Both the position numbers and the translations under genes were made by a program. From Treponemataceae bacterium (GTDB lineage Bacteria > Spirochaetota > Spirochaetia > Treponematales > Rectinemataceae): a stretch of 64,000 nt of DNA. Shown here piece after piece: positions 10,449 through 35,705 of this stretch. The notes below the pieces were generated by a model. It did no database searches, was not told where the DNA came from, and saw only the letters and a list, made by a program, of their open reading frames with translations. How positions within the stretch are numbered: the first letter of the stretch is position 1; the number at the start of each line of letters is the position of its first letter. The stretch spans positions 640,001-704,000 of the forward strand of contig CAXXVZ010000002.1 in assembly GCA_963678065.2 (NCBI GenBank), given 5' to 3'.

Positions 10449-11425
10449 GCGAGTTCCTTTCTGTTCAGGATGCTGATCACGACGTTTTTGACCGTCTCCA
10501 TCTCTTCGGGTTTGCTGACGGCGATGAACAGGGTGACGGCCGCGAGGGCATCGTTGCTGATGACGGGATTTCCGGATTCCGCATACAAAAGGCTGTTCTT
10601 TTCCATAAAGTAGAGAAAGCAGGCTGCCGCGATGCGCTTGTTCCCGTCGACGAAAGAGTGGTTCTTGACGATCAGATACAGCAGCATGGCGGCCTTTTCT
10701 TCCAGGCCCGGATACAGCTCGAGGCCTCCATAACTCTGATAGATCTGCCTGACCGAGCTTTCAAAGCCGTCATCCTTTTCCCTGCCGAACAATTTGGAGG
10801 CGAACTCGCTTCGCATGGACTCGATCACCGCCCGGTATTCATGGATCTCGACGACAATAGCGGGGCGTCTGGTCACCCCGGCAGTATCCAGTGTCTTGTG
10901 GTCGTAGTCATCCAGGAGGGAGAGCCCCTGCGCAAACTCCTCAAGCAGCTGCGCAAGGTTGCCTGCGTCGACAAGGTCTATCACCCGATGTTCGATCGAT
11001 CGGCGGAGTATGCTGATACCGTTTTTCAGGTCCCGTAGCTCCATGTCCCGCTCGGCAAGTCGTTTTTGGTTGATGGAGTAGCCGTCGACAAGGTATTCCC
11101 CGAGCCGTTTGGTGGCCCACTGGCGGAATTGGGTACCCTGTTTCGAGTTAACCCGGTAGCCGACGGAGATTATTACATCGAGATTGTAATACTCTACCTG
11201 ATAGGTTTTACCGTCAGTGGCAGTTGTTGCATTTTTTGCAACAACTGAAGTCTGATTCAATTCACCTTGTTCGAAAATATTCTTGAGGTGCCGGGAAATG
11301 GAGGATTTATCCCTGTCAAACAAGGATGCGATCTGTACCAAAGTAAGCCAGAATGATTCTTCTTCAAAACGTACTTCGACCTGAGTCTGCTTGTCCTCGG
11401 CCTGATAAATCAGAATCTCATTCAT
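10445..11425 (-). CDS. RhuM N-terminal domain + Fic/Doc protein
   Basis: YNLDVIISVGYRVNSKQGTQFRQWA; Fic motif HSFVDGNKR; ATG at 11425 after GGAGG. Confidence 0.88.
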   Translation of the reverse strand: MNEILIYQAEDKQTQVEVRFEEESFWLTLVQIASLFDRDKSSISRHLKNIFEQGELNQTSVVAKNATTATDGKTYQVEYYNLDVIISVGYRVNSKQGTQFRQWATKRLGEYLVDGYSINQKRLAERDMELRDLKNGISILRRSIEHRVIDLVDAGNLAQLLEEFAQGLSLLDDYDHKTLDTAGVTRRPAIVVEIHEYRAVIESMRSEFASKLFGREKDDGFESSVRQIYQSYGGLELYPGLEEKAAMLLYLIVKNHSFVDGNKRIAAACFLYFMEKNSLLYAESGNPVISNDALAAVTLFIAVSKPEEMETVKNVVISILNRKELA

Positions 11426-11754
11426 ATCCGTTTCCTCCCCGGCACACCGCCAGCGCGAGTTGTCGCATTTTTTGCAACTTATAAAGGAGCGCCCTTTGCT
11501 TTCGTGGAGGACTGATACTCCCGCTTCAACTAGTCGCGCGAATGTTGCCAAGTCGGCATATATGCTATTCAGGTATTGAGATAGCCATTCATTCATTCCT
11601 GGAAGGCAGTGTGCGAAATTTGCACTATGCATTTTTTTGCATGATGCTTTTCGCTTACGGTCTGTCTTCCTTGAACCAGAATCGACGCCAGCTTCGTTGC
11701 TGAAGGAATTGTGCCACAAACCGTGGCACAATTCGATGGACCGAAACCAAGGCC

Positions 11755-14700
11755 TCATGCTTCCTTCTCGATTATGCTTCTATAAATTTCCTTCGCGAGT
11801 AACGGAAAAACCGTCTTCTGGAAGTTCGAGTCGTCCATGTAGCGGGTGACGATGCTGTCGTTTTCACCGATTCTCTGCATCATCAGGGATTCGATAATGG
11901 ACTTGATGCCGAGCTGAAATTTGTCGAGAGGATTGGCGCGGGCGGTCTGGATGATCCGCTCGTCCTTGGAAGCTTTTTCCTTTATCTGTTCGAAAAATAG
12001 CCGGTCCTCTTCCGAGAAGTCCGTTCCAAAGCGTTCGTTCACGGTCTGGATGATTTCGGAGAGCGGTTTTTCTTCGTCCTTCGATGCGCCAGTTCCTACA
12101 GCTGTCGGCGATTTGACGCCGTACTGTTCTTCCTTTTCCAGAACGATAGTTCCCGACGACACCTTCTCGATCCTGTAATACTGGAGTGCAACCTCTTTTT
12201 CAGGATGCGGATTCACTATGTCTTCGCCCAGTTCGAGGTGAGGCAGCAGATATCGGCTGTAGCTGTAAAGCATCTCCAGTTCCTGGTCGGTGTAGGGCAT
12301 GATCTGGCTGACGAAGGAATAGAACCCGGCAAAAGCCGTCAGTTTTTCGTAGAACGATTCCCGCTTTTCTTCTTCGAGCGCCCTGAAACGGTCCACCGCG
12401 GGCTGCACCATCTTTTCCATCCGCGCATGGTCCGAGGGATTTTGTCTGTACTGCGGCAGATAGAAAACATGGCAGAATCCGACAACTTCCGACCAGAGAT
12501 ATACCTGAAAGGCATTCAATTCATGTTTCAGCTTCTCGAGGTGGGCGGGATCTGATTCCTCCTGCAAGGTCGTCACATTGTAGTAGGGTTTGAAAGCCTT
12601 GTAGATATCTTCCGCTTCGTTGACGAAATCCAGGACGAAAGGCTCTTCCTTTCCGGCGCTCATCCGGTTGAGCCGCGAAAGCGTCTGCACCGCCTGCACG
12701 CCATCGAGCCGTTTGTCCACATACATGGCGCACAGAAGCGGCTGGTCAAAACCAGTCTGATATTTGTTGGCGACCAGAAGAACCTGATAATCGGATGAAT
12801 CGAACTTGTCCGGCAGCTGGGATTCGGTAATGTTCTTGCCGGTCACCACATCGATGTTCATGGAGGATTCTGTAAAATCAGCCTCGGTGTCGGGATCTCT
12901 CACCGTTCCGCTGAACGCGACGAGGGGCCGAATGTCGGAATAATGGTTCTCCTCGATGTATTTCTGAAAGGACAGCATATAGCGTACCGCATGGAGCCGC
13001 GACCCGGTGACGACCATAGCTTTCGCCCGTCCGCCGAGTTTCTGCCTCACATGCTCGCGGAAGTGTTCGACCATGATTTCAGTTTTCTGCTCGATGTTGT
13101 GGGGATGTAAGGCCATGAATTTGCCGAGCTTCTTCTGCGCCTTCTTTTTCGGCATGGCCGGATCGTCTTCTACGCTTTTCACCAGCTTGAAATATGTCTT
13201 GTAGGTTGTGTAGCGCTTCAACACGTCCAGGATAAAGCCTTCTTCGATGGCCTGTTTCATGGAATACGTGTGGAATGCCTCGGGTTTTCCGCTCGATCCT
13301 TTTCGGCCGAAAAGTTCCAGGGTTTTCCCCTTGGGCGTCGCGGTAAACGCGAAAAAACTGAGATTCTTCTGTCTGCCGCGGGATTCCATGACTCTATTCA
13401 GGCCATCTTCCCAATCCAGCTCGCGCTCCTCGCCCTCGGATATATTCTCGCCGAACTCTGTCCCCGCACCAAGGATCCGCTTGAGCTCGCGGGCCGTCTC
13501 GCCGGTCTGGCTGGAATGGGCTTCATCTACGATGACCGCGTACTTTCGGGCGGCGATCGCATCCTGCCACTCTTTCGCCTTGGCGATGGCTGTTTCTTCT
13601 GGACTGTCCGGATTGTCGGCGCCGGCGATATGCAAAAGGCCGCGAAGGATGAATGGGAATTTCTGCAGGGTAGTGATGACGATCTTGGTCCCGTCGACCA
13701 GGGCTTCCGCGAGCTGGCGGGAGTTTTCATCGATAGCCTTCACGACGCCCTGGGCGTGTTCGATCTGATAGATGGCATCCTGCAATTGCTTGTCCAAAAT
13801 TTTGCGATCGGTGATGACCACGACACAATCGAAAACCTTGGCGTCAGCCTCGGTATGAAGGCTCGAAAGTCTATGCGAGAGCCAGGAAATGCTGTTTGTC
13901 TTCCCGCTTCCGGCAGAATGCTGGATCAGATAGTTGTTGCCGGCCCTTTCCGATCGCGCGGAGCGAATCAGACTGCGAACCGCGTCTAGTTGGTGATACC
14001 GGGGAAAAACCAGCGTCTCTCTGGTGACTTTTTTGCGTCCGCCCGCTCCGTCATCGAGCGTTTCTTCGCTCGTTTCAAGAAAGGCAAAACTGCCGATGAT
14101 ATCCAGAAAGCTTTCCCGTTCGAGTGTTTCTTCCCAGAAGTAGCCGGTGCGGTGCCCCGATGGATGCTGGGGATTGCCCCTGCCGCAGTCGATTTCTCCG
14201 GGAGCGCTGCCGCGGTTGAATGGCAGGAAGTATGTTTTTTCTCTGTTCAGGCGGGTCGCCATATACACTTCGGCGGGATCGACCGCAAAGTGAACTATCG
14301 CCCCATTTTTGAACCGGAAGAGCGGCGCGCGGGGATCCCGATCGGCCTTGTACTGGGCTACGGCATGTTTCCAGGTCTGCCAAGTTGCCGGATTTTTCAG
14401 CTCAAGCGTAGCGACGGGTAGTCCATTGAGGGAAAGCACCATGTCGACAGTGCTGGAATCGGCCGGATGACAGGCCACCTGCCGGGTGACATGCAGAAGA
14501 TTCTTGCCATAGAGCTCGATCGTCTCCGCGACCAGTCCGTGGGCCGGTTTGAAAAACGCCAGCTTGAAGGTCTTGCCATAGAATTTGAAACCGTGACGTA
14601 TGATGTGCAGCGTTCCTTTGGTCTCGCGCTCCTTGACGAGCATATCCACCAGTTTGGATGACAGTTCGCCGCCATGGAGCTTTTCCATCTGCGCCCAGAG

Positions 14701-14853
14701 TCCGCCTTGAGTACTCTTGATGAAGGCGATGACATATTCAGGAAAAAGTGCGCCGGTTTTGTCCCAAACCAGATTTGATCCCGCGATCCAGCCTCGCGCG
14801 GCCATGGTCTCCTGTGTATAGGCCTCAAAGGCTTTCTCGGTTGTCGCTTTCAT
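11755..14853 (-). CDS. hsdR: type I restriction endonuclease subunit R
   Basis: Nuclease ...VDMV...ATLELK; HSAGSGKT, VDEAH, FTATP, YQTGFDQP, QTLSRLNR. Confidence 0.95.
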   Translation of the reverse strand: MKATTEKAFEAYTQETMAARGWIAGSNLVWDKTGALFPEYVIAFIKSTQGGLWAQMEKLHGGELSSKLVDMLVKERETKGTLHIIRHGFKFYGKTFKLAFFKPAHGLVAETIELYGKNLLHVTRQVACHPADSSTVDMVLSLNGLPVATLELKNPATWQTWKHAVAQYKADRDPRAPLFRFKNGAIVHFAVDPAEVYMATRLNREKTYFLPFNRGSAPGEIDCGRGNPQHPSGHRTGYFWEETLERESFLDIIGSFAFLETSEETLDDGAGGRKKVTRETLVFPRYHQLDAVRSLIRSARSERAGNNYLIQHSAGSGKTNSISWLSHRLSSLHTEADAKVFDCVVVITDRKILDKQLQDAIYQIEHAQGVVKAIDENSRQLAEALVDGTKIVITTLQKFPFILRGLLHIAGADNPDSPEETAIAKAKEWQDAIAARKYAVIVDEAHSSQTGETARELKRILGAGTEFGENISEGEERELDWEDGLNRVMESRGRQKNLSFFAFTATPKGKTLELFGRKGSSGKPEAFHTYSMKQAIEEGFILDVLKRYTTYKTYFKLVKSVEDDPAMPKKKAQKKLGKFMALHPHNIEQKTEIMVEHFREHVRQKLGGRAKAMVVTGSRLHAVRYMLSFQKYIEENHYSDIRPLVAFSGTVRDPDTEADFTESSMNIDVVTGKNITESQLPDKFDSSDYQVLLVANKYQTGFDQPLLCAMYVDKRLDGVQAVQTLSRLNRMSAGKEEPFVLDFVNEAEDIYKAFKPYYNVTTLQEESDPAHLEKLKHELNAFQVYLWSEVVGFCHVFYLPQYRQNPSDHARMEKMVQPAVDRFRALEEEKRESFYEKLTAFAGFYSFVSQIMPYTDQELEMLYSYSRYLLPHLELGEDIVNPHPEKEVALQYYRIEKVSSGTIVLEKEEQYGVKSPTAVGTGASKDEEKPLSEIIQTVNERFGTDFSEEDRLFFEQIKEKASKDERIIQTARANPLDKFQLGIKSIIESLMMQRIGENDSIVTRYMDDSNFQKTVFPLLAKEIYRSIIEKEA

Positions 14854-15017
14854 GCTTGACTCCGGTTCAAAATGATTTGAACTGTCAAGTATTCCTTGAC
14901 AGTTGACTCCGAAGAAAGCTCGCCTTCCCTGAAACAGTTGCCGATATGCAGGCTGATATTCTGCTTTTCACCGCTTCCTTCCATGACTTCAAAGGCTTTC
15001 TCGGTCGTCACTTTCAT
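14850..15017 (-). pseudogene. chimeric remnant: duplicated hsdR start fused to a rhuM fragment
   Basis: MKVTTEKAFE (cf. HsdR MKATTEKAFE) followed by KQNISLHIGNCFREGELSSESTVKEYLTVQ. Confidence 0.7.
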
Positions 15018-15219
15018 CCGCGTCCCCTGAATTTTTGATCTCATAGAATCTCATAAACAACTCATTCGATCTCATGGATTCTCATAATTTGAAACGACAT
15101 ATTCATTGTACCATAACTATTTATATAACATGGTATTCCGAGCGAATATAATATTTCGCTGATTTTATGAGACCGCTTGCCGGGGCCGAGTATGTCAGCA
15201 AGGTGCTGGCTGTTGATGA

Positions 15220-16557
15220 TCATACAGCCTCCCGCACATCGATTTTGCCAGTAACCGCGGCGCTTATAAGAGCCGTCCGGTATTCCTTGAGTTTCTCGAT
15301 GACCGTTTTCACTTTGGCGGAAAGGATGTCAATTTTGGAGGTTTCGCGGTCGAGAAAGGCGGCGATGGCTTGTTGTTCGGGGAGTGGGGGGAAGCAAAAA
15401 CGAAACTCTTTTACATAATCATCAGGCACACGTTTCTGTCCACCCGCCCCATACATCCAAGCTTCGCCATTTTTTCGAAACTCATCCGAAATAGACAAGT
15501 AATACAGATATTCCACATCAAGATCTTTGCCTGGTCGCATTACTGTGAGCTCGGTTGTCCCAAAACCGCACCCGGTTCCAAGACCACGCATAATTGCGCC
15601 TTTGCCATTTTCAAAGCAAGGAGTGATTTTCGCAAAGGCTACATCACCTTCTGCAAAGAAGGTATAGCCAGTGCTTACTTCCGAAATTGGTCTCGTAGCA
15701 TCCAATCTCAGTGAACCGTCGCCACCAACAGCTTCCATTGGCAAAAATGCGAGTTCTGTCTCAAAATCGAGGTGATTTGCTTCTTGTTTGCTTGGATTCA
15801 TGCTGAGCATATATCGCGATCTCTTCAACACCCAATGCTCCGGCACATCCCCCAGCCATTCCACGCTAGAGGGTTTCATCATGACAGTTGCATCCAGTCC
15901 CTTGGTGACAGCCCGGGAGATGAGCGTCGAGCGCTGTTCCGCCAGCAACTCAAGCAGACGCTCTTTCTTGCCGAGGAGCGCATCGATACGCCCCGTCTCG
16001 CCGTCGAGAAAGGTGGCGATGGCTTGTTGTTCGGGGAGTGGGGGGAAGCAAAAACGAAACTCTTTTACATAATCATCAGGCACACGTTTCTGTCCACCCG
16101 CCCCATACATCCAAGCTTCGCCATTTTTTCGAAACTCATCCGAAATAGACAAGTAATACAGATATTCCACATCAAGATCTTTGCCTGGTCGCATTACTGT
16201 GAGCTCGGTTGTCCCAAAACCGCACCCGGTTCCAAGACCACGCATAATTGCGCCTTTGCCATTTTCAAAGCAAGGAGTGATTTTCGCAAAGGCTACATCA
16301 CCTTCTGCAAAGAAGGTATAGCCAGTGCTTACTTCCGAAATTGGTCTCGTAGCATCCAATCTCAGTGAACCGTCGCCACCAACAGCTTCCATTGGCAAAA
16401 ATGCGAGTTCTGTCTCAAAATCGAGGTGATTTGCTTCTTGTTTGCTTGGATTCATGCTGAGCATATATCGCGATCTCTTCAACACCCAATGCTCCGGCAC
16501 ATCCCCCAGCCATTCCACGCCGCTGCTCTTGTATTTCGGATAGGCTCTCGTCTTCAT
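15220..16557 (-). CDS. hsdS: type I R-M specificity subunit with two identical TRDs
   Basis: VEWLGDVPEHW and PPLPEQQAIA conserved regions; ends ALISAAVTGKIDV. Confidence 0.95.
   Translation of the reverse strand: MKTRAYPKYKSSGVEWLGDVPEHWVLKRSRYMLSMNPSKQEANHLDFETELAFLPMEAVGGDGSLRLDATRPISEVSTGYTFFAEGDVAFAKITPCFENGKGAIMRGLGTGCGFGTTELTVMRPGKDLDVEYLYYLSISDEFRKNGEAWMYGAGGQKRVPDDYVKEFRFCFPPLPEQQAIATFLDGETGRIDALLGKKERLLELLAEQRSTLISRAVTKGLDATVMMKPSSVEWLGDVPEHWVLKRSRYMLSMNPSKQEANHLDFETELAFLPMEAVGGDGSLRLDATRPISEVSTGYTFFAEGDVAFAKITPCFENGKGAIMRGLGTGCGFGTTELTVMRPGKDLDVEYLYYLSISDEFRKNGEAWMYGAGGQKRVPDDYVKEFRFCFPPLPEQQAIAAFLDRETSKIDILSAKVKTVIEKLKEYRTALISAAVTGKIDVREAV
15361..16520. repeat. ~506-bp apparently perfect direct repeat inside hsdS (15361-15866 and 16015-16520)
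   Basis: Offset 654 nt; both halves translate identically. Confidence 0.95.
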
Positions 16558-17576
16558 CGTCCGCCCTCCTTCCGCTCAAGAGTCCGTTCCAGCTCTTCCA
16601 GCTGGGCCAGATCTTCCCGGTCAGCCTGGCTGGCTTCCTCTTCCACGCGGCGGGCGTTGAATTCGTTGTAGCGCTGGTGGGCGATCTCCACCATGGTTTC
16701 GTGGCTGATCCCGCCAGGACTGCGCAAGATCGGCTTTTCGTTGAACTCGAGGAGCCGGTCCACATTGTTCCGCCAGTACGCGAGCGAAAGCTGCTTGCGC
16801 TCCTTGACCCGCAGTTCGGCCTGCTCCAGAAAGATCACCACAAGGCGGTTGAGGGTATCGATCTCGTCGGCGCCGAGGTAATTCTTGGCGACGATGACAT
16901 CCTGCCTGCGCACCCGACTGCCGCTCCAGGTGGTGAGAGCCATATTCGGCTCATTGGGACTGGAACGGGAGACGACCAACTCCGCCGCCGTCGCGCCGGT
17001 CACGGCGTAGAGAAGCTTGTTCTGCACCTCCGCGAAGAAGAGCTGGGCGGCCTTCTCATCATCCTTGTAGTCGACACTCAGGGCGAAGAGGTCGCGGACC
17101 TTCTGGTAGAAGCGTTTTTCGGATGCGCGGATCTCCCGGATTCGCTCCAGAAGCTCGTCGAAGTAATCCAACTTGCCGGGATTCTTGAGCCGCTCGTCGT
17201 CCATCACGAAGCCCTTGATCAGGAGTTCCTTGAGCTTGGTCGTTGCCCATTTCCTGAACTGAGTTCCCCGTGGCGACTTCACCCGATACCCGACGGCCAG
17301 GACTGCATCCAGATTGTAGTAGGACACGTCGTAGATTTTACCATCAGCGGCAGTTGTCCGGAAATTCCGGACAACTGAAATCTCGTCCAACTCACCCTCG
17401 GTGAAAATATTCCGAAGGTGCTCGCTGATGGTTCGCTTGGATCGTTCGAAAAGCTCCCCCATGAGTGCCTGCGAGAGCCAGACAGTGTCCCCGGCGAGTC
17501 TGCACTCGATACGGTCTTTCCCGTCATCAGTATGGTAGATGATGAGTTCGCCACGGTTGTTCGACGATTCGCTCAT
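16554..17576 (-). CDS. rhuM: RhuM-family (virulence protein) DNA-binding protein
   Basis: YNLDAVLAVGYRVKSPRGTQFRKWAT, RIREIRASEKRFYQKV, VAKNYL. Confidence 0.9.
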   Translation of the reverse strand: MSESSNNRGELIIYHTDDGKDRIECRLAGDTVWLSQALMGELFERSKRTISEHLRNIFTEGELDEISVVRNFRTTAADGKIYDVSYYNLDAVLAVGYRVKSPRGTQFRKWATTKLKELLIKGFVMDDERLKNPGKLDYFDELLERIREIRASEKRFYQKVRDLFALSVDYKDDEKAAQLFFAEVQNKLLYAVTGATAAELVVSRSSPNEPNMALTTWSGSRVRRQDVIVAKNYLGADEIDTLNRLVVIFLEQAELRVKERKQLSLAYWRNNVDRLLEFNEKPILRSPGGISHETMVEIAHQRYNEFNARRVEEEASQADREDLAQLEELERTLERKEGGR

Positions 17577-19654
17577 CTTTCGCCCTCGGCGCTGCCGGTG
17601 ATCCCGGCCAGCATGGCCACGATCTCGCTTTCCAGGGCCTTCACGTCGGCGGCGATATCTTCCAGCGCCCGGGGAGGCTCGTAGCAGTAGAAATGGCGGT
17701 TCATCGGTATTTCGTAGCCCACCTTGGTCTTTCCGTGGTCGATCCAGGCATCCGGCACATGGGGCAGGACTTCGCGCGCAAAGTAGGCTTCGATATTTTC
17801 CTTGAGCGGAACGTTCTCAGTATCGCGCAGATCGGCGTCGGGCTCGGGGTTGCCCCTGGCGTCGCGGCAAATTTCGGCGGTCTCGTCCTTCTCGCCCAGG
17901 GCTTCCATCACGAGCTTCAGTTCCGCCGAGGAGAGACGCAGCCCGGATTTCTGGTCGATGGCTTTAAGCTCCTTCAGGAAGGTGGTCCGGTCCCTGAAGA
18001 GTTTACCCCCGCTGACCGCGCCGAGATCGACCAGCACCGCCTTGATAGCCTCGCGCCGCTTGGTCCCAGCGTCGATCTTCTTGTCGCTCTCGGCGATCTT
18101 CTGAAATCCGCGCAGACCATCGAGGAGGGCGACCCGCTCGGCGCTGGCCTGGAAGTTCAGCCGCAGGGGCCGTTCCACTGTAATCTTGTTGTATCCAAAG
18201 TCCATGTTGTCGAAGATTTTGCTGACGATGACGCGCTTCGTAACTCCATCGACCTCAGTCGCGCGCGTTTCGTCATGTACGAAATTGCCGTAGATCCTGC
18301 TGATCTCGCCGATCTGATCCGGGCGATTTTCTTCGCCGTCGCCGATCTGGTTGCGCTTGTTCCCCAAACTCTTGCGCATCTTGACAGAGAACTCGCGCGC
18401 ATCGATCAGCTGGATCTTCCCCGCCCGTCGCTTTTCTTTCCTGTTGGTGATGATCCAGATGTAGGTCGAAATGCCGGTATTGTAGAAAAGCTGATCCGGC
18501 ATGGCGACGATAGCTTCCAGCCAGTCGTTCTCGATGATCCACTGACGGATATTCGACTCGCCGCTTCCCGCGTCGCCGGTGAAGAGCGGCGATCCGTTGA
18601 ACACGATCCCGATGCGGCTTCCTCCCTCGGCTGGAGAGCGCATTTTCGAAATCATGTGCTGCAGAAAGAGGAAAGAGCCATCGTTTATTCTGGGCAACCC
18701 GGCCCCGAAGCGCCCACCGTAGCCCAGCTTCGCCGCTTCATTTTCGATCGTCTTCTGCTGCTGTTTCCACTCCACGCCGAAGGGCGGATTGGCGAGCATG
18801 TAATCGAAGGTGGCTCCCTTGAATCCATCCTTCTCGAAGCTGCAATCGGGCTTGATGTTGTCGGAGTCCTCGCCCTTGATGAGCATATCAGCCCGGCACA
18901 CCGCGTAGGCTTCGTCGTTCAAGTCCTGACCGTACAGATGAGGCTGGGCTTCGCTGTTCAGGGTTCTGATATAGCGCTCCGCGACCGAGAGCATTCCGCC
19001 CGTGCCGCAGGCCGGATCGTAGATGGTCTTTACGACATGGCTCTTGCGCAGGTCAGTTTCAGGCGAGAGCAGGAGGTTGACCATGAGCTTTATGACTTCG
19101 CGCGGCGTGAAATGCTCTCCGGCCTCCTCGTTCGACTGCTCCGCCCCTATCCGGATGAGTTCCTCGAACACATAGCCCATCTGCATGTTGTCGATATTCC
19201 GCGGAGACAAGTCGATCCTGTCCGAAGCGAATTCCTTGATGACATTGAAGAGCAGATTCTTTTCATTCATTTTTCCGATCTGCTGCCCGAACTCGAACTT
19301 CTCGAATATCTGGCGCACATTTGGCGAAAAGGCATTGATGTAGCTGTTCAGGTTCGGGGCGACCTGATTCGGATCGTCCAGAAGCTTCCCGAAGGTAAGC
19401 CTGGACAGGTTGTAGAACGGCACTCCCGTGATCGTCCGCAACTGGGCGCTGACGATATTCTCCGACTTGCCCTTGAGTCTGTCGTATTCGGCCAGAACCG
19501 CATTCTTGGTCGATTCGAGAATGCAATCAAACCTCCGCAATATCGTCAGCGGCAGGATGACCTTGCGATATTCATTTCGTTTATATGGACCGCGGAGCAG
19601 ATTGCAGATGCTCCAGATGAAATTGGCCGTCTGGGCGTGGGTTTGCTGGGACAT
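17573..19654 (-). CDS. hsdM: type I R-M N6-adenine methyltransferase subunit
   Basis: GEHFTPREV, YDPACGTGGM, NPPF; in an operon with rhuM-hsdS-hsdR. Confidence 0.95.
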   Translation of the reverse strand: MSQQTHAQTANFIWSICNLLRGPYKRNEYRKVILPLTILRRFDCILESTKNAVLAEYDRLKGKSENIVSAQLRTITGVPFYNLSRLTFGKLLDDPNQVAPNLNSYINAFSPNVRQIFEKFEFGQQIGKMNEKNLLFNVIKEFASDRIDLSPRNIDNMQMGYVFEELIRIGAEQSNEEAGEHFTPREVIKLMVNLLLSPETDLRKSHVVKTIYDPACGTGGMLSVAERYIRTLNSEAQPHLYGQDLNDEAYAVCRADMLIKGEDSDNIKPDCSFEKDGFKGATFDYMLANPPFGVEWKQQQKTIENEAAKLGYGGRFGAGLPRINDGSFLFLQHMISKMRSPAEGGSRIGIVFNGSPLFTGDAGSGESNIRQWIIENDWLEAIVAMPDQLFYNTGISTYIWIITNRKEKRRAGKIQLIDAREFSVKMRKSLGNKRNQIGDGEENRPDQIGEISRIYGNFVHDETRATEVDGVTKRVIVSKIFDNMDFGYNKITVERPLRLNFQASAERVALLDGLRGFQKIAESDKKIDAGTKRREAIKAVLVDLGAVSGGKLFRDRTTFLKELKAIDQKSGLRLSSAELKLVMEALGEKDETAEICRDARGNPEPDADLRDTENVPLKENIEAYFAREVLPHVPDAWIDHGKTKVGYEIPMNRHFYCYEPPRALEDIAADVKALESEIVAMLAGITGSAEGER

Positions 19655-19667
19655 CGGATTATTTCCT

Positions 19668-20606
19668 TTATCGGGATTCAGTTAATTTTTTCGACTTGAT
19701 GATCGAATAGCCTGATTTTATAAGACTGACGATGTATTCCAGCTCGGAATCATCGGAAATCTGGATTTCATAATCTCCATTTCCATGATGCCCGATTCCG
19801 GAAACATCCCGGGCTACGCCCTTATGGTCGTCGAGTTCGCCTAGCGAAAGATTGATCCAGATTTTGATCGATTTTTTCTGGATCGCGATGTCGCAAAAAT
19901 TGGTAGATGAGACAAACGCGATGTACAACTTCGTAGGTCGCACCTGGATATCATCCGCGATATTGAGAATGTAGGACTTGAACTTGTCGTACAGTTCAGA
20001 AGTCGCGGGTGAGCCATTTGCCAGCTGATCGTCTTCCGAGTAGACCTTGATCTCTTTCGCTACCGTGTCGAGATCATCTGTCGGCTTGGCGATTGTCGCG
20101 ATTGATTCGGTCGCTCCCTTTGTCACCACGCGATTGAAAGAAATCGTGTTGTTGGAATACCGTCGAATCTCCCACAACTCGATCGGAAGGTCCCTGAAAT
20201 TGATCGCTTCTTTTTGATAGGTGGTAAAGGAGGGGGCAATAAAAATAACTCTTGATTGCGACCAGTCGACTTCGTTCCGCTTTAGGTTCTTCCTGGTAGA
20301 TTCATTGTACTCGAGGATAAAATCGGCCTTGTTGTTGAGCATCAAGGAAAGATACGCATAGCCTTGATCGATGACGCTGTAATTCCTGTCGCGCTTGTAT
20401 TCGATGACGATGAATGCGCGGGAATCCCCATCATAAGCCAGCGAGTCGATTCTGAACTCGCCCATCCTGAACTCGCTCCGGACAAAATCAAGCCCCAATA
20501 ATGATTTCAGATTATTTTCGCATATCGACTGGATTTCTTTTTCCAGCGTGAATGGCAGTTCCTCTATTGTCTGCAATTGGTTTTCCATCTGTCGATATAA
20601 TGCCAT
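19668..20606 (-). CDS. PD-(D/E)XK (NucS-like) nuclease + DUF5655-like domain protein
   Basis: EKEIQ...RIDSL...IEYKR; C-terminal TKLYIAF...RDVSGIGHHGNGDYE. Confidence 0.75.
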   Translation of the reverse strand: MALYRQMENQLQTIEELPFTLEKEIQSICENNLKSLLGLDFVRSEFRMGEFRIDSLAYDGDSRAFIVIEYKRDRNYSVIDQGYAYLSLMLNNKADFILEYNESTRKNLKRNEVDWSQSRVIFIAPSFTTYQKEAINFRDLPIELWEIRRYSNNTISFNRVVTKGATESIATIAKPTDDLDTVAKEIKVYSEDDQLANGSPATSELYDKFKSYILNIADDIQVRPTKLYIAFVSSTNFCDIAIQKKSIKIWINLSLGELDDHKGVARDVSGIGHHGNGDYEIQISDDSELEYIVSLIKSGYSIIKSKKLTESR

Positions 20607-20651
20607 GTTCTTTCCTCTCCATTTTCAGAAATCAGGGAATGAAAAATCAAG

Positions 20652-20757
20652 TTACAATGATGGCTTGACCTGCGACGCGGTCTGGTGTGGTTCCTGCATT
20701 GTTGTTCTTGCAGGAACCATGACAATGCCCTGAATCAGGTTGAAGCGATTAGTATAT
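20652..20757 (-). other. degenerate attC-like site
   Basis: Minus strand AATC-GCTTCAACCTG...TGGTTCCTGCA/TGCAGGAACCA...CAGGTCAAGC-CATC-ATTGTAA, directly after the stop of the upstream gene. Confidence 0.7.
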
Positions 20758-20760
20758 TTT

Positions 20761-23388
20761 CTACGCTTCCTTAATTGGTTCAATATCAAATCGTTTATGA
20801 ATTTCGTTAAATCCGAGAATTTTCGCTTTTATAATATCCCCAGATTCAATTCCCATCGTTTTTAGGCTTGTCGGGGAAAACCCTTTCCCATTTAAACCAA
20901 AAACAGTAAATACGCCATATCCCTCGACGTGTATAACTTGTGTATCAATTATGCTGCCCTTTGGATATTGCTCTTTGAGTCGTTCATAATCAATGAATGA
21001 ATCATCTTCGCTAACCCTCTTTTCCATCCAATCCTTTAGCGCAAATATATTAGAGTACTTAGGCGAAGTTTTTTCATCTAGATACTTATCATATTTGTAA
21101 TTGCTATTATCATAATACTCAAACAGGTAATTAACTACGCTTCTTGCGTTTTCCAAAATTGACTGGTGACTTAAGAAAGGAAAACTATCTTTTCTAATTA
21201 AATTATCTGCAATTTTTCGAGCTCGACTTTCATCATTATATAAGGTATCTTCAGAAATAAATGCTAAATAAAATATGTTTTGTATTAGTTCTAGATGCAT
21301 CAATCCGCCTGCAGTTATCGATACCAGCTCGCTCTCTTCTGGAATATGCTTAATTTGAGTTTCCGACACTATGCAATCTGCCAGAATGAGCTCTTGTACT
21401 TCTTTTTCAATCCTTGCCTCTGCATGACCTAAAAGCATTAGCTCTGCTTTTAGGTCACTATATCTATGATATCCCCTAGCATTTGCTGCAAATGTAGAAT
21501 CCCTATGAGCGGCAAGCCATTCAAGTATGGCTTCTCTTGCAAATGGATCCGGGAGTTCGTCATCTTTGCTCATTTTATATACATTTTTTACTCTCGAAGA
21601 TTCATCGTCATAAAACCTTTTAGTACCTTTAATAATTATCTGCATTGTTGCTAGCACGGGTATCATTTGATTTCCTGCATTCTGCCTTATTCTTACTATT
21701 GTATCCTCTAAAATGTATCCACTCTTGCAGAAATCTAGAAATATTTCCAATCCTTTTCGAATGTCTCTACCGGCTAGCCCGATAAATAAGCGTTTTGTTA
21801 AATCAGTCTGAAAAATTGATTGTAGAATTGCCTTAAGATAAATAACGACATCATCAGACTTGCATAATATTCTCATACCATTTCTAGTCGTATAATGGAA
21901 ATCTCTATGATCTTTAGAAACTTCTCTTACGACATAATCTAGTCTAGCCTGTAAAACTTGATCAAGAAATGGCGGATCGATTCTAAACATTAAATCTTTT
22001 ATCGCAGTATCAAGCGGCGGAGTTCTTCTATATTGATCGAATGTTGTATCCCTAAGCGGAAGAAAAACCATACAGTGGAACGAATTCTTAATCCAATTAG
22101 CGACATCGAACATCAACAACTGAAGGTCCCTACTACGTTTATCAGAATTATCAAGAACAATTATTGGAGATATTTTTCTCTCCGCGTAGTAATATCTTAA
22201 TAAGGCATTTAATGTCTTTATCTTATCGCTTAATAATCTTGATAAAAGATCGTATAGTTCAGACTTGTATTTTTCCGATTCTTTTCCATAAATCGATATT
22301 GGCCCTTTTTCAAAAGTCTTAATCTCATTATGGAATATTTTGAGTTGTACTTTATAATCATCAATATCTTCACCGCATTTTTCTTTAATTTGACTAATTG
22401 CCTGTTCTAATACCCAGGAATAAATAATCTCACTTGATTCAGGAGCATCATTCATATTTAAGTTGATCCATACAGTACTGGCTCTTGTGCTCTCATCTAG
22501 TGCTTTATAGTGCAAATAGTCAACGAATGTTGATTTCCCGGAACCCACACTTCCAATCAAGATGCAGACTTCATGCTTATATCTATGAATATCTTTGATG
22601 GTTTCTAGTAGTTCTACAGGCTTACCTGTATCCATAATCTTTTTTACTTCAGTAATATCAATTGCTGAAGCTCTTCTAATAATTTTTTCAATCGGATTTA
22701 CATGAGAATCTCTCTTCTTTGATTCAACGTAAGCATTTAATACGATATTTTTTCGATCTTCTTCATTTGATGGGTTATAGACATATTTGTAATCTATGGC
22801 AATGTTTGTTCCAAAGCTATTATCTCCAATTACTTCAGAGGCTGCCGCTTTACCTCCAAGTAAATACACTGGCTTAATTAGACGTCCTTTGCCTCTTATT
22901 TTTTTTAGTACTTCAGTAGCGATATTTTCAATATTTTCTTTACACGCACGTTTAATAAATTCGTAATAGCTTTTTTGAGATGCGCACATATCTTTTGCGC
23001 TAAACACTATTTCTGGTTCTTCTGTATCCCATGTTCCAATACAAGTCTTCAGATAGTTAGTGGCAACTATCAGCGAGCATGGGTTAATATTTGACGGATA
23101 AAACCCGTTTATTTCACACGCATACAATCTAGCTTCTCTATAACCGACAAGAATATCTTCCTTGGGGCTTTTCGCCTCAATTACCATAATCGGCAAACCG
23201 TTCGAAATAACTACATAGTCTGGGAAATACACCTTTCTACTACTTCCCTTGCCAATTTCCAGTTTTCGCAAATTTTCTTTTGTGCGAAAATCAGAATATT
23301 TATAACCAAGCCCTATCGGGTGAACCTGAACGAGAAGTGGCGCGATAAATTTCTGTTCAACATCACTTTCATTAGTAATTGCTTCCAC
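20761..23388 (-). CDS. HsdR N-terminal-like nuclease + P-loop NTPase + C-terminal S1-like domain; putative defence protein
   Basis: ESDVEQKF, PDYV...VIEAK; Walker A GSVGSGKST; Walker B IIVLDN; C-terminal YPKGSIIDTQVIHVEGYGVF...GDIIKAKIL; markedly AT-rich. Confidence 0.75.
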   Translation of the reverse strand: MEAITNESDVEQKFIAPLLVQVHPIGLGYKYSDFRTKENLRKLEIGKGSSRKVYFPDYVVISNGLPIMVIEAKSPKEDILVGYREARLYACEINGFYPSNINPCSLIVATNYLKTCIGTWDTEEPEIVFSAKDMCASQKSYYEFIKRACKENIENIATEVLKKIRGKGRLIKPVYLLGGKAAASEVIGDNSFGTNIAIDYKYVYNPSNEEDRKNIVLNAYVESKKRDSHVNPIEKIIRRASAIDITEVKKIMDTGKPVELLETIKDIHRYKHEVCILIGSVGSGKSTFVDYLHYKALDESTRASTVWINLNMNDAPESSEIIYSWVLEQAISQIKEKCGEDIDDYKVQLKIFHNEIKTFEKGPISIYGKESEKYKSELYDLLSRLLSDKIKTLNALLRYYYAERKISPIIVLDNSDKRSRDLQLLMFDVANWIKNSFHCMVFLPLRDTTFDQYRRTPPLDTAIKDLMFRIDPPFLDQVLQARLDYVVREVSKDHRDFHYTTRNGMRILCKSDDVVIYLKAILQSIFQTDLTKRLFIGLAGRDIRKGLEIFLDFCKSGYILEDTIVRIRQNAGNQMIPVLATMQIIIKGTKRFYDDESSRVKNVYKMSKDDELPDPFAREAILEWLAAHRDSTFAANARGYHRYSDLKAELMLLGHAEARIEKEVQELILADCIVSETQIKHIPEESELVSITAGGLMHLELIQNIFYLAFISEDTLYNDESRARKIADNLIRKDSFPFLSHQSILENARSVVNYLFEYYDNSNYKYDKYLDEKTSPKYSNIFALKDWMEKRVSEDDSFIDYERLKEQYPKGSIIDTQVIHVEGYGVFTVFGLNGKGFSPTSLKTMGIESGDIIKAKILGFNEIHKRFDIEPIKEA

Positions 23389-23428: not shown

Positions 23429-23494
23429 ATCTATCGTTGATTTGACCCGCGAAGGGGCTTGCCCCCTGAGTCGGTGTCGAAATCTTTGTTCGAT
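23429..23494 (-). other. degenerate attC-like site
   Basis: Minus strand ATCGAAC-AAA-GATTTCGAC...AGGGGGC-AA-GCCCCT...GTCAAATC-AAC-GATAGAT. Confidence 0.75.
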
Positions 23495-23516: not shown

Positions 23517-26252
23517 CTATCCACTTAGCGCCTTCGAAATCCGGTAGTAACGTCTATCTAGAGCATCACGGCCGCCTTCCATAACTTCACAAACGGCCGT
23601 TCGAATCCCCTTGTCTTGGAGTGCATTGTTAGCTGATACGACAATCTGTCCAGATACGAATTCCATGTGGACGACATTGTCAGAATTGGCGTTTACGGTG
23701 ATATTTGGATTGTGTGTTACTACCACCAGTTGTCTAGATTGTTTCAGTTTCTTGAGGCCGTCGACAACGAAATTTGAGATCAGTTTGGAATCAAGATCGT
23801 CTTCAGGCTGGTCAATGATCAAAGGATTGTCATTGATTGCGAGCAATAGACCTAACATTCCAGCGGTTCGTTCACCGGCCGAACCTGACTGAATATCTTC
23901 TTCTTTCCCTTGCTTTCTGAATTTTAGGACCAACTTGTCTTCTGGTACCCATATCAATATTCGGTCTATGTCCTCTGGTGTTGTTGCCTTCAGGTAGTCG
24001 AGATGCTTCGCGAGTCTCATGTCCAAGTTCTTTTTGTCTTGTTCACTAGCAGACAAGAACTCGAGGATCGCAGCGTCTCTTTTCGCCCAACGAGAAGCCT
24101 CCGGCTCGTTGATGATTTCCGCAATCAGTCCCTTGCTTGTTCTCTTTTCGTCATCGTACACATAGAGATCGTTTGCAAATTCGCCACCTGTCTTTCGTAG
24201 GAGCTCTCGGAACGTAGCTACCGCGCCCTCAGGATCGCCCATACTATGAAGTTCAATTGTCAAAAACGGATTCTTTTGATCATCGATAGTTTTCCAACGT
24301 CCAATAACTTCCCGACGCATTCTCCGTAGATCTTGTTCTTTTCCAATGATGTCGACGTACAGGGCTCTCAGTTCATTCTGGAGTTTGGAGAGTTGCTCCT
24401 TCTGGCTTGAAATATTCGCCAATTTCTCACTAATTCCTGCTCGTCGTTGAAGCAAAGTCTCGTATGTATCTGTCCCTAGTTCCCCAATCTGGTCCGCGAT
24501 GCCGTCGTATGATGACTTTGCGTTCATGTAGTCTACGAACCAGTTCAAGGTCTTTGTCAAAGCGTCAAGATTCTCGCCATAAGGCCGAAGAACCTCTTCG
24601 GCTTCTAAAAGCTTTGCCTTAGCCGATTGCAGAGCAGCGTTCAATGTCTCTACGAACTCGAGCGAATCTCCAGTGATTGTGTCGAGAATATTTTCAGGAA
24701 TTTCAACTCGAGGTACTGCATTTTCAAAGATCAATAGCTGATCAATGAAACTCGAGACATCGGTCGATATATCAGAAAAGAATCTACTAGTTTCGGACAG
24801 CTTATTGAACTTTTCCAGAATTTCCTTAAACTCTGAACTCTCAAAGAGAGCTATCCTATTGTTCGTCTGTTTGAGTTGTGCGGAAATATTTGGTTCTTCG
24901 GAGATGGCGTTATGGAGTTGCCTTCGGGCGGCGCGACCGGCCAGCCAACGTTCAATTAATTGATTTTGCTCGGCAGACCACAGAGCCTTGTCAAACTGAG
25001 AATCAATAAGTTCGAGCAACTTCTGAGGATCACCAGTAACTGAATAGAGTTCTTTCTGCGAGAATATCTGAATAGGGAAAAGTTCCTTAATGTTCGATAC
25101 TGAAGTTACTGCACTCCATGTAGATGAATCATGTTCCCGTTCTTCCAATGTGTGAAGGTAGTTGTGCCATCGAATACGATGGACTTTTGCATCCTTGACA
25201 ATTTCGACGACTATTTCAGTTGCCGGCCTGAGCATTCCCGGGCTGTCTTTCTTTCCCAATGAATAGAACTTTCTAAATTCTCCATCAATTTCCTCAGGCA
25301 TTTCATCAATACGGTTCATCGCGATCCTCAAGTAGTTGAGGACCGACGATTCCCCTGAGCCACGGCCGCCAATTATCGAAGTGAGCCATGGGCTAAACTC
25401 CGCCGACATCGGAGTGCCATTTCCGGCTTTGTAGCCATTAACTATCGAGACTGATTTGATGAAATAACGGGATAGAATCTGATTTGGGTCATTTTTTGTC
25501 ACCTCATGTCGAATCAAACCATCGTCACCATCATGAAGTGCCAATTTTAGCGCATCAAGCGATGGAGACCCCATTTTCACCCATGTAAATCTTGAGCCAA
25601 CCTGATCGGCGATATGACTATCCGATCCAATTATTTCCGAAAGACTTAGTTTGCTTTGGACATAGATGTCGGGCTTGAGAACCGAAGGATCAATCACTTC
25701 GATGGCCAATAGTCCCTCAACAGCAAGAGATTGCTTGAGAGTGTTCCCGTCTTCCTTTGTAAAGAGCCCGCATGGTCCGTCCACATGCGCGGGTACAGCT
25801 ATACCACCAGCTAGATGGATTTTTTGGATAACCTCTACAACAGTTTTATTGGTCACCGCGTCAGAAGTTCCAAATTGATCTGAAGGAAATCCAACCGATC
25901 CCAGAAGGGCATGGACTTTCTTTGTATCTGCAGTAGGGTCGAAGATAGCAAGTAAATGTGTATTTCCGGAGGCAGAAATCTCAACGCCAGGAAACAGCCA
26001 TAGTTTTCGATAGCCCTTCGCCTTTTCTTCTTCCAATTCCCAAAGTGCACGTTTTAGAATGTCAATCCAGTCGCCGGTGTTGTGATCGGTTATGGCGACA
26101 CAGTCTATTTCCTGAGCCATGTACATTAGTAGCCAGTCTTTGGCGGAGATGTTCTTGTACGCGGCGTCGCCTTTTCCAAAATCTTTCGAAGCAGGCGTGT
26201 GATTGTGAAAGTCGAACTTCCACCAAAGGGCACCATGAATCAGATGTTTCAC
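23517..26252 (-). CDS. PHP phosphoesterase + SMC/ABC-type ATPase (TrlF/Ppl-like anti-phage protein)
   Basis: DFHNHTPAS, ITDHN, PGVEI, PAHVD, GSDSH; Walker A GGRGSGESS; signature GSAGER; IIDQPEDDLD; VVTHN. Confidence 0.88.
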   Translation of the reverse strand: MKHLIHGALWWKFDFHNHTPASKDFGKGDAAYKNISAKDWLLMYMAQEIDCVAITDHNTGDWIDILKRALWELEEEKAKGYRKLWLFPGVEISASGNTHLLAIFDPTADTKKVHALLGSVGFPSDQFGTSDAVTNKTVVEVIQKIHLAGGIAVPAHVDGPCGLFTKEDGNTLKQSLAVEGLLAIEVIDPSVLKPDIYVQSKLSLSEIIGSDSHIADQVGSRFTWVKMGSPSLDALKLALHDGDDGLIRHEVTKNDPNQILSRYFIKSVSIVNGYKAGNGTPMSAEFSPWLTSIIGGRGSGESSVLNYLRIAMNRIDEMPEEIDGEFRKFYSLGKKDSPGMLRPATEIVVEIVKDAKVHRIRWHNYLHTLEEREHDSSTWSAVTSVSNIKELFPIQIFSQKELYSVTGDPQKLLELIDSQFDKALWSAEQNQLIERWLAGRAARRQLHNAISEEPNISAQLKQTNNRIALFESSEFKEILEKFNKLSETSRFFSDISTDVSSFIDQLLIFENAVPRVEIPENILDTITGDSLEFVETLNAALQSAKAKLLEAEEVLRPYGENLDALTKTLNWFVDYMNAKSSYDGIADQIGELGTDTYETLLQRRAGISEKLANISSQKEQLSKLQNELRALYVDIIGKEQDLRRMRREVIGRWKTIDDQKNPFLTIELHSMGDPEGAVATFRELLRKTGGEFANDLYVYDDEKRTSKGLIAEIINEPEASRWAKRDAAILEFLSASEQDKKNLDMRLAKHLDYLKATTPEDIDRILIWVPEDKLVLKFRKQGKEEDIQSGSAGERTAGMLGLLLAINDNPLIIDQPEDDLDSKLISNFVVDGLKKLKQSRQLVVVTHNPNITVNANSDNVVHMEFVSGQIVVSANNALQDKGIRTAVCEVMEGGRDALDRRYYRISKALSG

Positions 26253-32834: not shown

Positions 32835-33524
32835 TTAATTATCTTTCTCCTTATTGATGCCTTTGATGAGAATCCAGACTGCGATCACAAATTCGAATGG
32901 AATGTAGAGAACGTAGAGGAAAACAGAGGCTTTGGCGCCGAAGAGGCCCAGCAACACTCCCGCGAAGACGCCTTGGGCGCTCACCAGGCCCCAGAGAGAC
33001 AAGGGCCACGCCACTGTGCGCGCTTTCAGGAGGAGGGCGTAGAAGATCGTCCCGCCCACGCAAAAAGCAAAATTGGCTATTCTGAAGGAGTACCCCATGG
33101 CTTCGTACACCGCCTTGGCCGTCGGTTCCAGCGAGGCGGGACTGCCGGCGGCGATGAACTCCCGGCTGAAAACCAGAAGGGCGAAGAGCGCGAGTTCAGT
33201 GACCGCGAGCATGACGCCTTCCAGGACATAAAGACCGAATGCCGTCAGAACCAGTCCTTCGTGCTGCTTTCTCACTGCCGAGTACAGCATCGCGCCGAGG
33301 AAGATCACACCGGCCGCAGTGACGAGTTCCATCAAGATGTTGACCTGGACGAGTCCCTCATTTTTGGCGATGTTGGCCATGATCTGGCCGATTTCCAGCG
33401 GCAAGCCGAAAGCCTTGACTCCGGTAGCCTTGGGGAGAATGAAGACGCCGGCCGAGAACGATGTGACGAACTGGATCAGAAAAGCCAGCCCGAGAATCCG
33501 CGATTTTTTGTTTACAGAGGTCAT
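32835..33524 (-). CDS. DUF4386-family membrane protein
   Basis: Start MTSVNKKSRILG; multiple TM segments; C-terminal FEFVIAVWILIKG. Confidence 0.8.
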   Translation of the reverse strand: MTSVNKKSRILGLAFLIQFVTSFSAGVFILPKATGVKAFGLPLEIGQIMANIAKNEGLVQVNILMELVTAAGVIFLGAMLYSAVRKQHEGLVLTAFGLYVLEGVMLAVTELALFALLVFSREFIAAGSPASLEPTAKAVYEAMGYSFRIANFAFCVGGTIFYALLLKARTVAWPLSLWGLVSAQGVFAGVLLGLFGAKASVFLYVLYIPFEFVIAVWILIKGINKEKDN

Positions 33525-34210
33525 ACTGTTCTCCCTTGTTCCTTGTAACCCTTCACGATCAGCCAGACGGCTAGAACCATTTCCTGCGCCATGATGGGCA
33601 GGGAAAGAACCATTTGAGTCGTTGAAAATGAACTGATAAAACCGAACATCACGGCAAAGGCGGACACCAGGAACAGTGTAAGTCCCAGGAGCCCCCACAC
33701 GGAAAGCCAGCGGGGAATGAGTCGGGTTCTGTAGAAAACCGTGTAGTAAATGTAGGCCCCGACGCACCAGGGAAAGACGGCGGAACCGTTGGCCGACCAA
33801 TCCCTCACCGTCTTGATCGCCGCGGCCGCGGGCTGGAAAAACGAGTTGGCGGGGCTGCCGGCCTTCACGAATTCCTGGCTGACCGCCAAGAGAGCAATAA
33901 GGACGACGGCACCTACAATCTGGAGCGCCCCTTCGATGATGCGGAACCCCATCGCGGCGAGCGCCAGACCCTCGCCGTGCCGTTTCAGGACAGGGTAGAG
34001 CGAGATCCCGATGCCGGCGCAGGCCAATCCCAGGAACAGCAGGTCGAAAAGCGCCAGGCAGAGAATTTGAACGCTGTGCGCCGCCATTCCGGAAAGGTAA
34101 TCCGGGGATGAGACGAACGGACCCCAAAGAAGCCCTGCGGCAATTGGCGGCACCGTTCCCAGAATGAACAAGACGCCGGTTATCCGGGCGCTCGTCCTTG
34201 AAGTGATCAT
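33521..34210 (-). CDS. DUF4386-family membrane protein
   Basis: ARITGVLF, RLIPRWLSVWG, EMVLAVWLIVKG. Confidence 0.85.
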   Translation of the reverse strand: MITSRTSARITGVLFILGTVPPIAAGLLWGPFVSSPDYLSGMAAHSVQILCLALFDLLFLGLACAGIGISLYPVLKRHGEGLALAAMGFRIIEGALQIVGAVVLIALLAVSQEFVKAGSPANSFFQPAAAAIKTVRDWSANGSAVFPWCVGAYIYYTVFYRTRLIPRWLSVWGLLGLTLFLVSAFAVMFGFISSFSTTQMVLSLPIMAQEMVLAVWLIVKGYKEQGRTV

Positions 34211-34461
34211 GCTGTTTCTCCTTCTTTCGTCTGATTTTCCACTCTCTGAACCGAAACGAGGGTCAGGCCAAGGTCCCTCACTTTTCGAATCAGACCGTGG
34301 AGCGCTGCCTGATCGGCAACCATTCCCGTAAGGAGGACTCCGCCATTGGCTTCCTCTATAACTTCAAAACCGCAGAACCATTCGTTCCATTCGGACCCCA
34401 GGTCTTCCTGAAGCCGGATACGGTAAACGGCGGGGGTGTTGAAATTGATTTCCTTGTCCAT
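34207..34461 (-). CDS. conserved small protein, copy 1 (DQAALHG motif)
   Basis: YRIRL..W.EWF.G...DQAALHGLIRKVRDLGLTLVSV; three paralogues in the window. Confidence 0.8.
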   Translation of the reverse strand: MDKEINFNTPAVYRIRLQEDLGSEWNEWFCGFEVIEEANGGVLLTGMVADQAALHGLIRKVRDLGLTLVSVQRVENQTKEGETA

Positions 34462-34519
34462 GACCGTCCCTCCTGGCGCCTAAATCTAGGCGATCACGAG
34501 TAGGCGGAACATACCTCTA

Positions 34520-34567
34520 AAGGAGTATTTGTAGGAGTATTTGGAAAAGCATTTGAAGGAGTATTCA
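34520..34567. promoter_or_regulatory. four 12-bp-period direct repeats (AGGAGTATTTNN), candidate regulator boxes
   Basis: aggagtatttgt-aggagtatttgg-aaaagcatttga-aggagtattcag upstream of the gene at 34461. Confidence 0.55.
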
Positions 34568-34795
34568 GTCCATCTTCTGCAGGTTATCCGCTACCCGAAA
34601 GACCGACAGCAGCGGCATTCCGAGATCGCGCACTTTTCGCAGGATGCCAAAGAGGGCAGCCTGGTCGACTACGGAGCAGATCAAGAGGGTGACGCCCTCG
34701 TCCTCCCGGGCGAGGATGACTCCCCCGAACCAGTCCGCCCACTCATCGCCCAAGAGGCCCTCAAGTCGTATCTCATATCGCATGACGCTCCCCAC
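34565..34795 (-). CDS. conserved small protein, copy 2
   Basis: YEIRLEG..WADWFGG...DQAALFGILRKVRDLGMPLLSV. Confidence 0.8.
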   Translation of the reverse strand: MGSVMRYEIRLEGLLGDEWADWFGGVILAREDEGVTLLICSVVDQAALFGILRKVRDLGMPLLSVFRVADNLQKMD

Positions 34796-34813
34796 ACAGG
34801 CATGGCGCCTCTA

Positions 34814-35506: not shown

Positions 35507-35705
35507 ACAATTCCCTCCATTTATTTGCGTTCGGGCACAAACATAGCGCTTCCTGCCCTGCGGCGCGTAGACACAAAAGTGTCGATTTGTTGTCAATTGG
35601 AAAACACACTCCGAACCACACTCAAGTGCCTACGCTACGATTCTCCGGCGCGCCGGCAGACGGTATCAGGAAGTTCGTGAAACTGGCGAAGACGATGTAG
35701 GAGCC

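Follow-up and report, generated by a model that had tools for sequence, protein, structure and literature searches.

On the reverse strand of the window, by which we mean the whole stretch of 64,000 nucleotides analysed, lies a gene for an 875-aa protein, with a gene for a Ppl/TrlF-like PHP-ATPase on its upstream side and, on its downstream side, a DUF5655/PDC-S18 gene that is followed by a type I R-M operon (Table 1). The open reading frame is a real gene, and its GC content of 0.35, against 0.589 for the genome, bears out the AT-richness claimed for it when only the letters of the DNA had been read. That sequence-only reading placed the gene between a Ppl-like gene and the R-M operon, which is correct except that the DUF5655/PDC-S18 gene stands between the gene and the operon. 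Neither of the two adjoining genes is a conserved partner.

Table 1. Features of the gene under study and of its immediate surroundings, in window coordinates.
Feature	Coordinates	Strand	Details and basis
Gene under study	20761..23388	(-)	875 aa, GTG start; ORF, sequence and model
Domain order: nuclease, ORC1/Cdc6-like AAA+ ATPase, winged helix, helical bundle, S1	20761..23388	(-)	
PD-(D/E)XK nuclease domain, about residues 1-165	22894..23388	(-)	Pfam HSDR_N, fold match, conservation of E7, D57, E71, K73 and Y89
ORC1/Cdc6-like AAA+ ATPase and lid, about residues 190-600	21589..22821	(-)	Foldseek, structural search
Walker A, residues 279-286	22531..22554	(-)	Sequence and conservation
Non-canonical Walker B DNxD, residues 409-416	22141..22164	(-)	Conservation, also in DS-14
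Predicted winged-helix domain, about residues 615-704	21277..21546	(-)	Secondary structure; Cdc6/Orc1 alignment reaching residue 704
S1 OB-fold, about residues 800-875, somewhat diverged in this copy	20764..20991	(-)	Profiles and model
Ppl/TrlF-like PHP-ATPase, upstream neighbour	23517..26252	(-)	PADLOC Ppl E 9e-111; NCBIfam TrlF above, Ppl below cut-off
DUF5655/PDC-S18 gene, downstream neighbour, then type I R-M operon	19668..20606	(-)	Pfam, PADLOC
Decayed attC, downstream; the gene's own former cassette site	20648..20757	(-)	blastn; nhmmer E 1.5e-12 at 20661-20750
Decayed attC-like site after the ppl-like gene, L boxes pairing with an extra base	23429..23494	(-)	Sequence and fold, dG -10.8, z -2.3

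Both flanks carry the attC-like sites that had been noticed from the sequence, and both sites are decayed, neither having an intact R'. The downstream site is homologous to the genome's own attC family and has lost its R boxes; the upstream site has paired L boxes and GAT where R' requires GTT, and the genome's attC model gave no match to it. An integron integrase with an adjacent attC array is encoded elsewhere in the genome (C3:97196-98137), and the gene is probably a former cassette that is now fixed. A mobile integron cassette with an intact attC (R'' AAC, R' GTT) was rejected on the absence of an intact R' from both flanks. A family that is cassette-borne in general was likewise rejected: a strict attC was found downstream of 0/40 testable relatives (2/800 shuffles had one), so the attC flanking reflects local history.

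Several other features of the window and of the genome deserve mention in their own right. Residue 301 of the Ppl/TrlF-like neighbour, the Walker A position that calls for Lys, is Glu (GAA, 25350-25352 on the reverse strand); loss of its ATPase activity is possible, as is a sequencing error. A defence cluster at 8952-20606 (-) comprises type I R-M with a second hsdM (8952-10448), two RhuM genes (PDC-S05; PDC-S23 with Fic) and the DUF5655/PDC-S18 gene; the HsdS at 15220-16557 (-) consists of two near-identical halves (300-nt repeat, 99%), and a symmetric recognition site is therefore predicted. Weak matches to the genome's attC model at 974-1045 and 4111-4210 (-), in a group of small genes that all face the same way, suggest that another cassette cluster, also decayed, lies at the start of the window. 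The genome has an integron integrase with a long attC array (C3:97196-124706) and, next to another tyrosine recombinase, a second cluster of attC sites (C3:2358752-2370574). At 32835-38891 (-), three similar membrane-protein genes lie next to a gene for a 1061-aa P-loop protein with a C-terminal helix-turn-helix, which presumably resembles a MalT-type regulator.

Database profiles capture little of the 875-aa protein. Pfam reports only HSDR_N above its cut-off, with P-loop families sub-threshold; PADLOC and NCBIfam hold no full-length family and give P-loop-only matches for this protein, and they hold no full-length family for 16 relatives either, among them DS-14, the validated anti-phage protein discussed below; and a PDB search with the single sequence returned nothing meaningful. 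The domain anatomy was obtained from an AlphaFold2 model built from a 48-row alignment of relatives (pLDDT 86.6, pTM 0.82, a confident model) and from conservation in diverse full-length relatives, for which the 343 of 420 stored proteins that measure 760-1200 aa, fragments dropped, were thinned by identity to 104.

The N-terminal domain is a PD-(D/E)XK nuclease, as the HsdR_N-type motif read from the sequence had indicated: HSDR_N matches residues 55-122 with an E of 8.8e-10; the fold matches BpuSI (3s1s; Z 9.5 over residues 1-157 in a wide structural search) and DrdV (Z 9.4); and D57 and Y89 are kept in 104/104 relatives and E71 and K73 in 103/104. The likeness to HsdR is limited to this domain. 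HsdR itself was rejected, as Pfam, Foldseek and structural search detected no SF2 helicase/translocase domains and there are no HsdM/HsdS partners; HsdS occurs near only 1 of 41 family loci, and the R-M operon of the window carries its own hsdR. The database label "type I restriction endonuclease" is a mis-annotation.

The ATPase has an intact Walker A (G279-S286), in which G279, G282, G284 and K285 are invariant in 104/104 relatives, as are R482 and R544 further along the chain. Its Walker B, which had also been called intact, is not the canonical DE motif; it reads hhhhDNxD, with D413, N414 and D416 present in 104/104. A DNxD Walker B is without the catalytic glutamate of motor AAA+ proteins and fits a slow switch, not a motor. 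Cdc6/ORC proteins hold the top Foldseek ranks (E 4e-6), and in the structural search the closest match is Cdc6/Orc1 (2qby; Z 11.9, residues 192-704, rmsd 8.0, 323 aligned), followed by CED-4 (Z 11.1, tied with ORC/Cdc6 within 1), BrxC (Z 10.7), TnsC (Z 10.4) and Avs3 (Z 9.7), with Apaf-1 also matched; Pfam matches to nSTAND3 and nSTAND5 stay below cut-off. After the ATPase the model places a winged helix, a short helical bundle and S1, leaving no room for a TPR/WD40 repeat sensor. The "long helical region" of the sequence-only reading corresponds to the AAA+ lid, the winged helix and the helical bundle, and no repeat sensor appeared in secondary structure, Foldseek or structural search.

Judged from the model, the predicted NTPase is nearest to ORC1/Cdc6, not to the TPR-sensor Avs proteins. 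The 875-aa protein shares with the Avs and bNACHT STAND sensors the effector-NTPase-C-terminal layout and the fold matches to CED-4, Apaf-1 and Avs3; these sensors, however, have TPR/WD40 sensor regions, whereas the 875-aa protein is much shorter and closer to ORC1/Cdc6. Membership of the Avs or NACHT families by profile was rejected, the PADLOC and NCBIfam matches being confined to the P-loop. ORC1/Cdc6 initiators, BrxC and RADAR RdrA share the AAA+ fold, and ORC1/Cdc6 the winged helix as well; none of them has the fused nuclease and tail or the DNxD Walker B of the 875-aa protein, and no BREX or RADAR partner genes occur in the family neighbourhoods.

The closest validated protein is DS-14, a single-gene E. 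coli anti-phage protein with the DefensePredictor working id RMOR (PMC13092281), which reduces plating of Bas50, Candy and RB69 by 4.7, 3.7 and 1.1 logs, respectively (PMC13092281 Table S7), and is annotated as a BpuSI-like PD-(D/E)XK nuclease with an ORC1-like AAA+ domain (PMC13092281 Table S8). It has 816 aa (WP_040091717.1) and is located in a Rac-like prophage. The alignment of the two proteins by hhalign (probability 100, E 6.8e-40, residues 53-769 against 56-780) is collinear across nuclease, ATPase and winged helix; a profile of 48 close relatives scores DS-14 at 115 bits, compared to 1.1 for the best of 200 shuffles; and BLASTP finds 22.6% identity over residues 276-719. Common to both are D57, E71, K73, Y89, Walker A, DNxD, R482 and R544, an N-terminal BpuSI_N-like nuclease, a collinear ORC1-like AAA+ domain and the lack of a partner gene. 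DS-14 differs in its length, in having no RNA-binding tail and in its position in the tree, where the two proteins fall in separate clades at full support. Orthology of the 875-aa protein with DS-14 was rejected on the low identity, the separate clade and the extra S1; by analogy, we infer that the 875-aa protein would work like DS-14.

The earlier statement that the gene matches no named system therefore stands in one respect, the absence of a full-length PADLOC or NCBIfam family, and falls in two others: its core is collinear with that of a validated protein, and a homologue had already been predicted as a defence gene. PADLOC 2.0 gives no match even to DS-14 itself. The homologue, WP_015405781.1 from a Desulfocapsa plasmid, belongs to the same S1-tailed family (41.7% identical over 99%) and is listed, on computational grounds, as a "predicted novel defense gene" with log-odds of 11.5 (PMC13092281, DefensePredictor Table S4); it is unnamed there and is not among the validated systems in part 1 of 3 of Table S6 (PMC13092281).

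The distribution of the family is broad and patchy. Of 8000 candidates scored, 611 were matches, and 1303 representatives were obtained with E no higher than 0.001. Spirochaetes, proteobacteria, Bacteroidota, Firmicutes, Planctomycetes, Nitrospirota and Patescibacteria are all represented among the 41 genome loci, and a full-length copy was present in 0/30 relatives of the genome studied here. GC lies below that of the flanks at 40/41 loci. The family occurs in 21 plasmid records, and tblastn found no match in 50,697 phage records. Relatives sit on plasmids and in the Rac-like prophage that carries DS-14, and further tail-less relatives were located in a P4-like satellite and beside phage packaging genes. 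No partner gene recurs among 457 neighbouring ORFs from the 41 loci, on which ground a multi-gene system was rejected.

Most neighbours at these loci are housekeeping or unknown genes. Validated-type defence systems occur within four ORFs at 4/41 loci (274/457 neighbours scanned), namely SoFic twice, retron VI with type I HsdS, and SIR2-HerA. Set against a background of 0.0153 taken from another pipeline (the part of PMC12803255 covered), this gives a p of 0.0035, an enrichment that is therefore modest and uncontrolled. PADLOC neighbour matches set aside as non-defence were a cyclase (L015), a group II-like RT (L019), FtsK (L022), OmpA (L024), an ABC transporter (L032) and a TnpB/Cas12f-like protein (L035), and candidate-only or weak matches were left uncounted (L001 PDC-S15, L036 PDC-S02, a lone methylase at L037, and PbeA at L015). 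Pfam neighbours also include HEPN, TIR, Schlafen-helicase, DUF4238, integrase and transposase. One homologue (L018:11892-14573) adjoins a retron type VI with type I HsdS, and another (L022:4302-7350) adjoins SIR2-HerA.

These contexts bear on whether the protein acts in defence at all. It could instead be a nuclease with a selfish or anti-plasmid role, or an RNA/DNA stress-processing enzyme on mobile DNA, and 37/41 loci without a validated-type system within four ORFs, together with the lack of a PADLOC or NCBIfam family match, would suit such a role. DS-14, however, is validated against phages, relatives are found at sites where prophages or satellites carry cargo, and the family is patchily distributed and its genes AT-rich; we regard a function outside phage defence as very improbable. 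Because of the homology to DS-14 and the mobile contexts, phage defence as such is, by analogy, the highly probable role of the 875-aa protein. The suggestion of a single-gene defence nuclease-NTPase made by the sequence-only reading is in this respect supported by the lack of a partner and by the DS-14 homology.

What distinguishes the 875-aa protein from DS-14 is its tail. Pfam does not call S1 on the 875-aa protein, yet the S1/OB-like fold proposed from the sequence was recovered in three ways: the family profile matches ribosomal S1 repeats (E 1e-26); an S1 profile from whose construction the 875-aa protein was left out recovers its tail at E 3.5e-15; and the tail of the model (residues 800-875) aligns with ribosomal S1 at Z 10.8 and rmsd 2.5 over 75 residues. 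Pfam S1 is present in about 73 of the 120 closest homologues by hand count. The present copy is diverged, with Pro839 where 27/58 S1 members have His, and with a short deletion. Y/F824 (38/58), F827 (42/58) and R/K866 (50/58), which we take to be the RNA-face residues of the S1 tail, are kept in most S1 members.

Of the 104 rows, 57 end in S1, 11 in tandem cold-shock domains and 2 in RRM, with Pfam support; in the other 34 the tail is undetected, 29 of them having short ends and 5 having long tails that are possibly diverged. Some of the short metagenomic ends could be truncations; DS-14, however, is complete and tail-less. RRM stands in place of S1 in distant members of the S1 clade (two copies in P0150, E 2.7e-27; one in P0163) and is of the bacterial RNA-binding Rbp type. 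Tandem cold-shock domains mark a sister group, in which they were found in 115/120 among the matches listed, and also in an Atlas cluster and in plasmid examples. All three kinds of tail closely match host proteins (rS1/GSP13, CspE/CspA and Rbp). In the tree, the RRM rows are nested in the S1 clade, and the tail-less rows lie between the S1 and cold-shock clades. A single tailed clade was rejected (p about 1e-86) by an AU test on 18 rows, for which the tested group was named after earlier trees had been viewed and in which long branches are present; tails have therefore been gained or lost repeatedly. Two plasmid genes annotated as "cold shock domain-containing proteins" (L042:5932-8853 and L043:5305-8178) encode the tandem cold-shock version of the same core.

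The RRM fold differs from those of S1 and cold-shock domains, and the property shared by all three is binding of single-stranded nucleic acid, chiefly RNA; S1 and cold-shock domains bind single-stranded DNA as well. The exchange of S1 for RRM and cold-shock domains lends support to the idea, already proposed by the sequence-only reading, that the tail binds nucleic acid, and RNA is the likely ligand of the predicted domain. For ribosome sensing, proposed alongside it, we found nothing specific.

Taken together, these observations point to a single-gene, ATP-switched DNase directed against phages, whose S1 tail would bind single-stranded RNA as an accessory trigger or aim, a reading to which we give an even chance. 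Infection would trigger the ORC1/Cdc6-like ATPase switch, with predicted oligomerisation; the oligomer would free the N-terminal nuclease to act on DNA; cleavage of DNA would stop the infected cell (abortive infection); and the S1 tail, by binding single-stranded RNA, would help to trigger or aim the nuclease. A homodimer predicted for residues 168-615 scored 0.00, a value that counts neither way on oligomerisation. As DS-14 protects without any tail, S1 is not an obligatory or core sensor. Against the reading stand an identity to DS-14 of only 22.6% and the separate, fully supported clades, the presence of validated-type systems within four ORFs at only 4/41 loci, the diverged state of this S1 copy, the ability of S1 and cold-shock domains to bind single-stranded DNA too, and the action of the nearest folds, ORC/Cdc6, TnsC and BrxC, on double-stranded DNA.

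Those folds invite an alternative in which the ATPase and winged helix would be loaded onto the double-stranded DNA of the phage for the nuclease to cleave. The cell would live, and the tail would do no more than aid affinity by gripping displaced ssDNA or an R-loop. Such direct restriction would agree with the DNA-loading AAA+ proteins with winged helices that head the structural matches (Cdc6/Orc1, BrxC and TnsC, with the Z scores given above), with the match of the nuclease to the restriction enzymes BpuSI and HsdR, and with the dispensability of the tail in DS-14. It appears unlikely to us in view of the lack of a methylase or other self-protection partner, of the Rbp type of the RRM replacements, which points to RNA, and of the invariant DNxD, which without the catalytic glutamate of motor AAA+ proteins suits a switch.

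The tail might also be a decoy that mimics host RNA chaperones (ribosomal S1, CspA/E and Rbp) bound or attacked by phage proteins, their capture activating the nuclease. The residues that we take to face RNA are kept in most S1 members, and three independent decoys, all of them RNA-binding domains, would be less parsimonious, so we hold this to be distinctly unlikely, even though the tails closely match their host counterparts and the bacterial STAND-type sensors described so far, in the part of the source covered, recognise phage proteins, mostly through repeat sensors (PMC12803255).

Returning to the RNA-binding accessory tail, a bolder version is that a widespread DS-14-like superfamily of ORC1/Cdc6-type immune switches recruited S1, tandem cold-shock and RRM domains as sensors time and again, which would make the tailed proteins RNA-triggered, protein-only NLR-like nucleases that detect phage or infection-altered RNA directly and respond by cleaving DNA; we consider this doubtful, if conceivable. 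One core that occurs naturally without a tail and with S1, cold-shock or RRM tails offers a domain-swap series for the question of an RNA-triggered switch.

The novelty lies in the tail, which DS-14 lacks and which relatives carry in the form of S1, tandem cold-shock or RRM domains. In the non-subscription full-text literature covered here, we found neither this tailed architecture nor the exchange of tails described. In the portions covered, a term search of PMC13069673 gave no match, seven supplements of PMC13581612 gave none to the domain names, six accessions and four motifs, and PMC13092281 yielded no description of the trigger and substrate of DS-14. The family may be among the 589 STAND clades of PMC13581612. 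As far as the sources were covered, other defence systems also contain RRM, cold-shock and S1 domains, but in a different architecture (PMC12839542, PMC11090510 and PMC7159879).

Through the link to DS-14, hundreds of entries that now go by "type I restriction endonuclease", "S1 RNA-binding protein" or "cold shock domain protein" become candidates for DS-14-like defence. Three E. coli proteins of DefensePredictor Table S10 (883, 554 and 971 aa) may belong to the family as well. A separate defence candidate is E. coli WP_000258270.1 (L066:4824-7274), a tail-less protein of 816 aa, 25% identical to DS-14, whose gene lies in a P4-like satellite at ssrA, flanked there by the integrase and psu.
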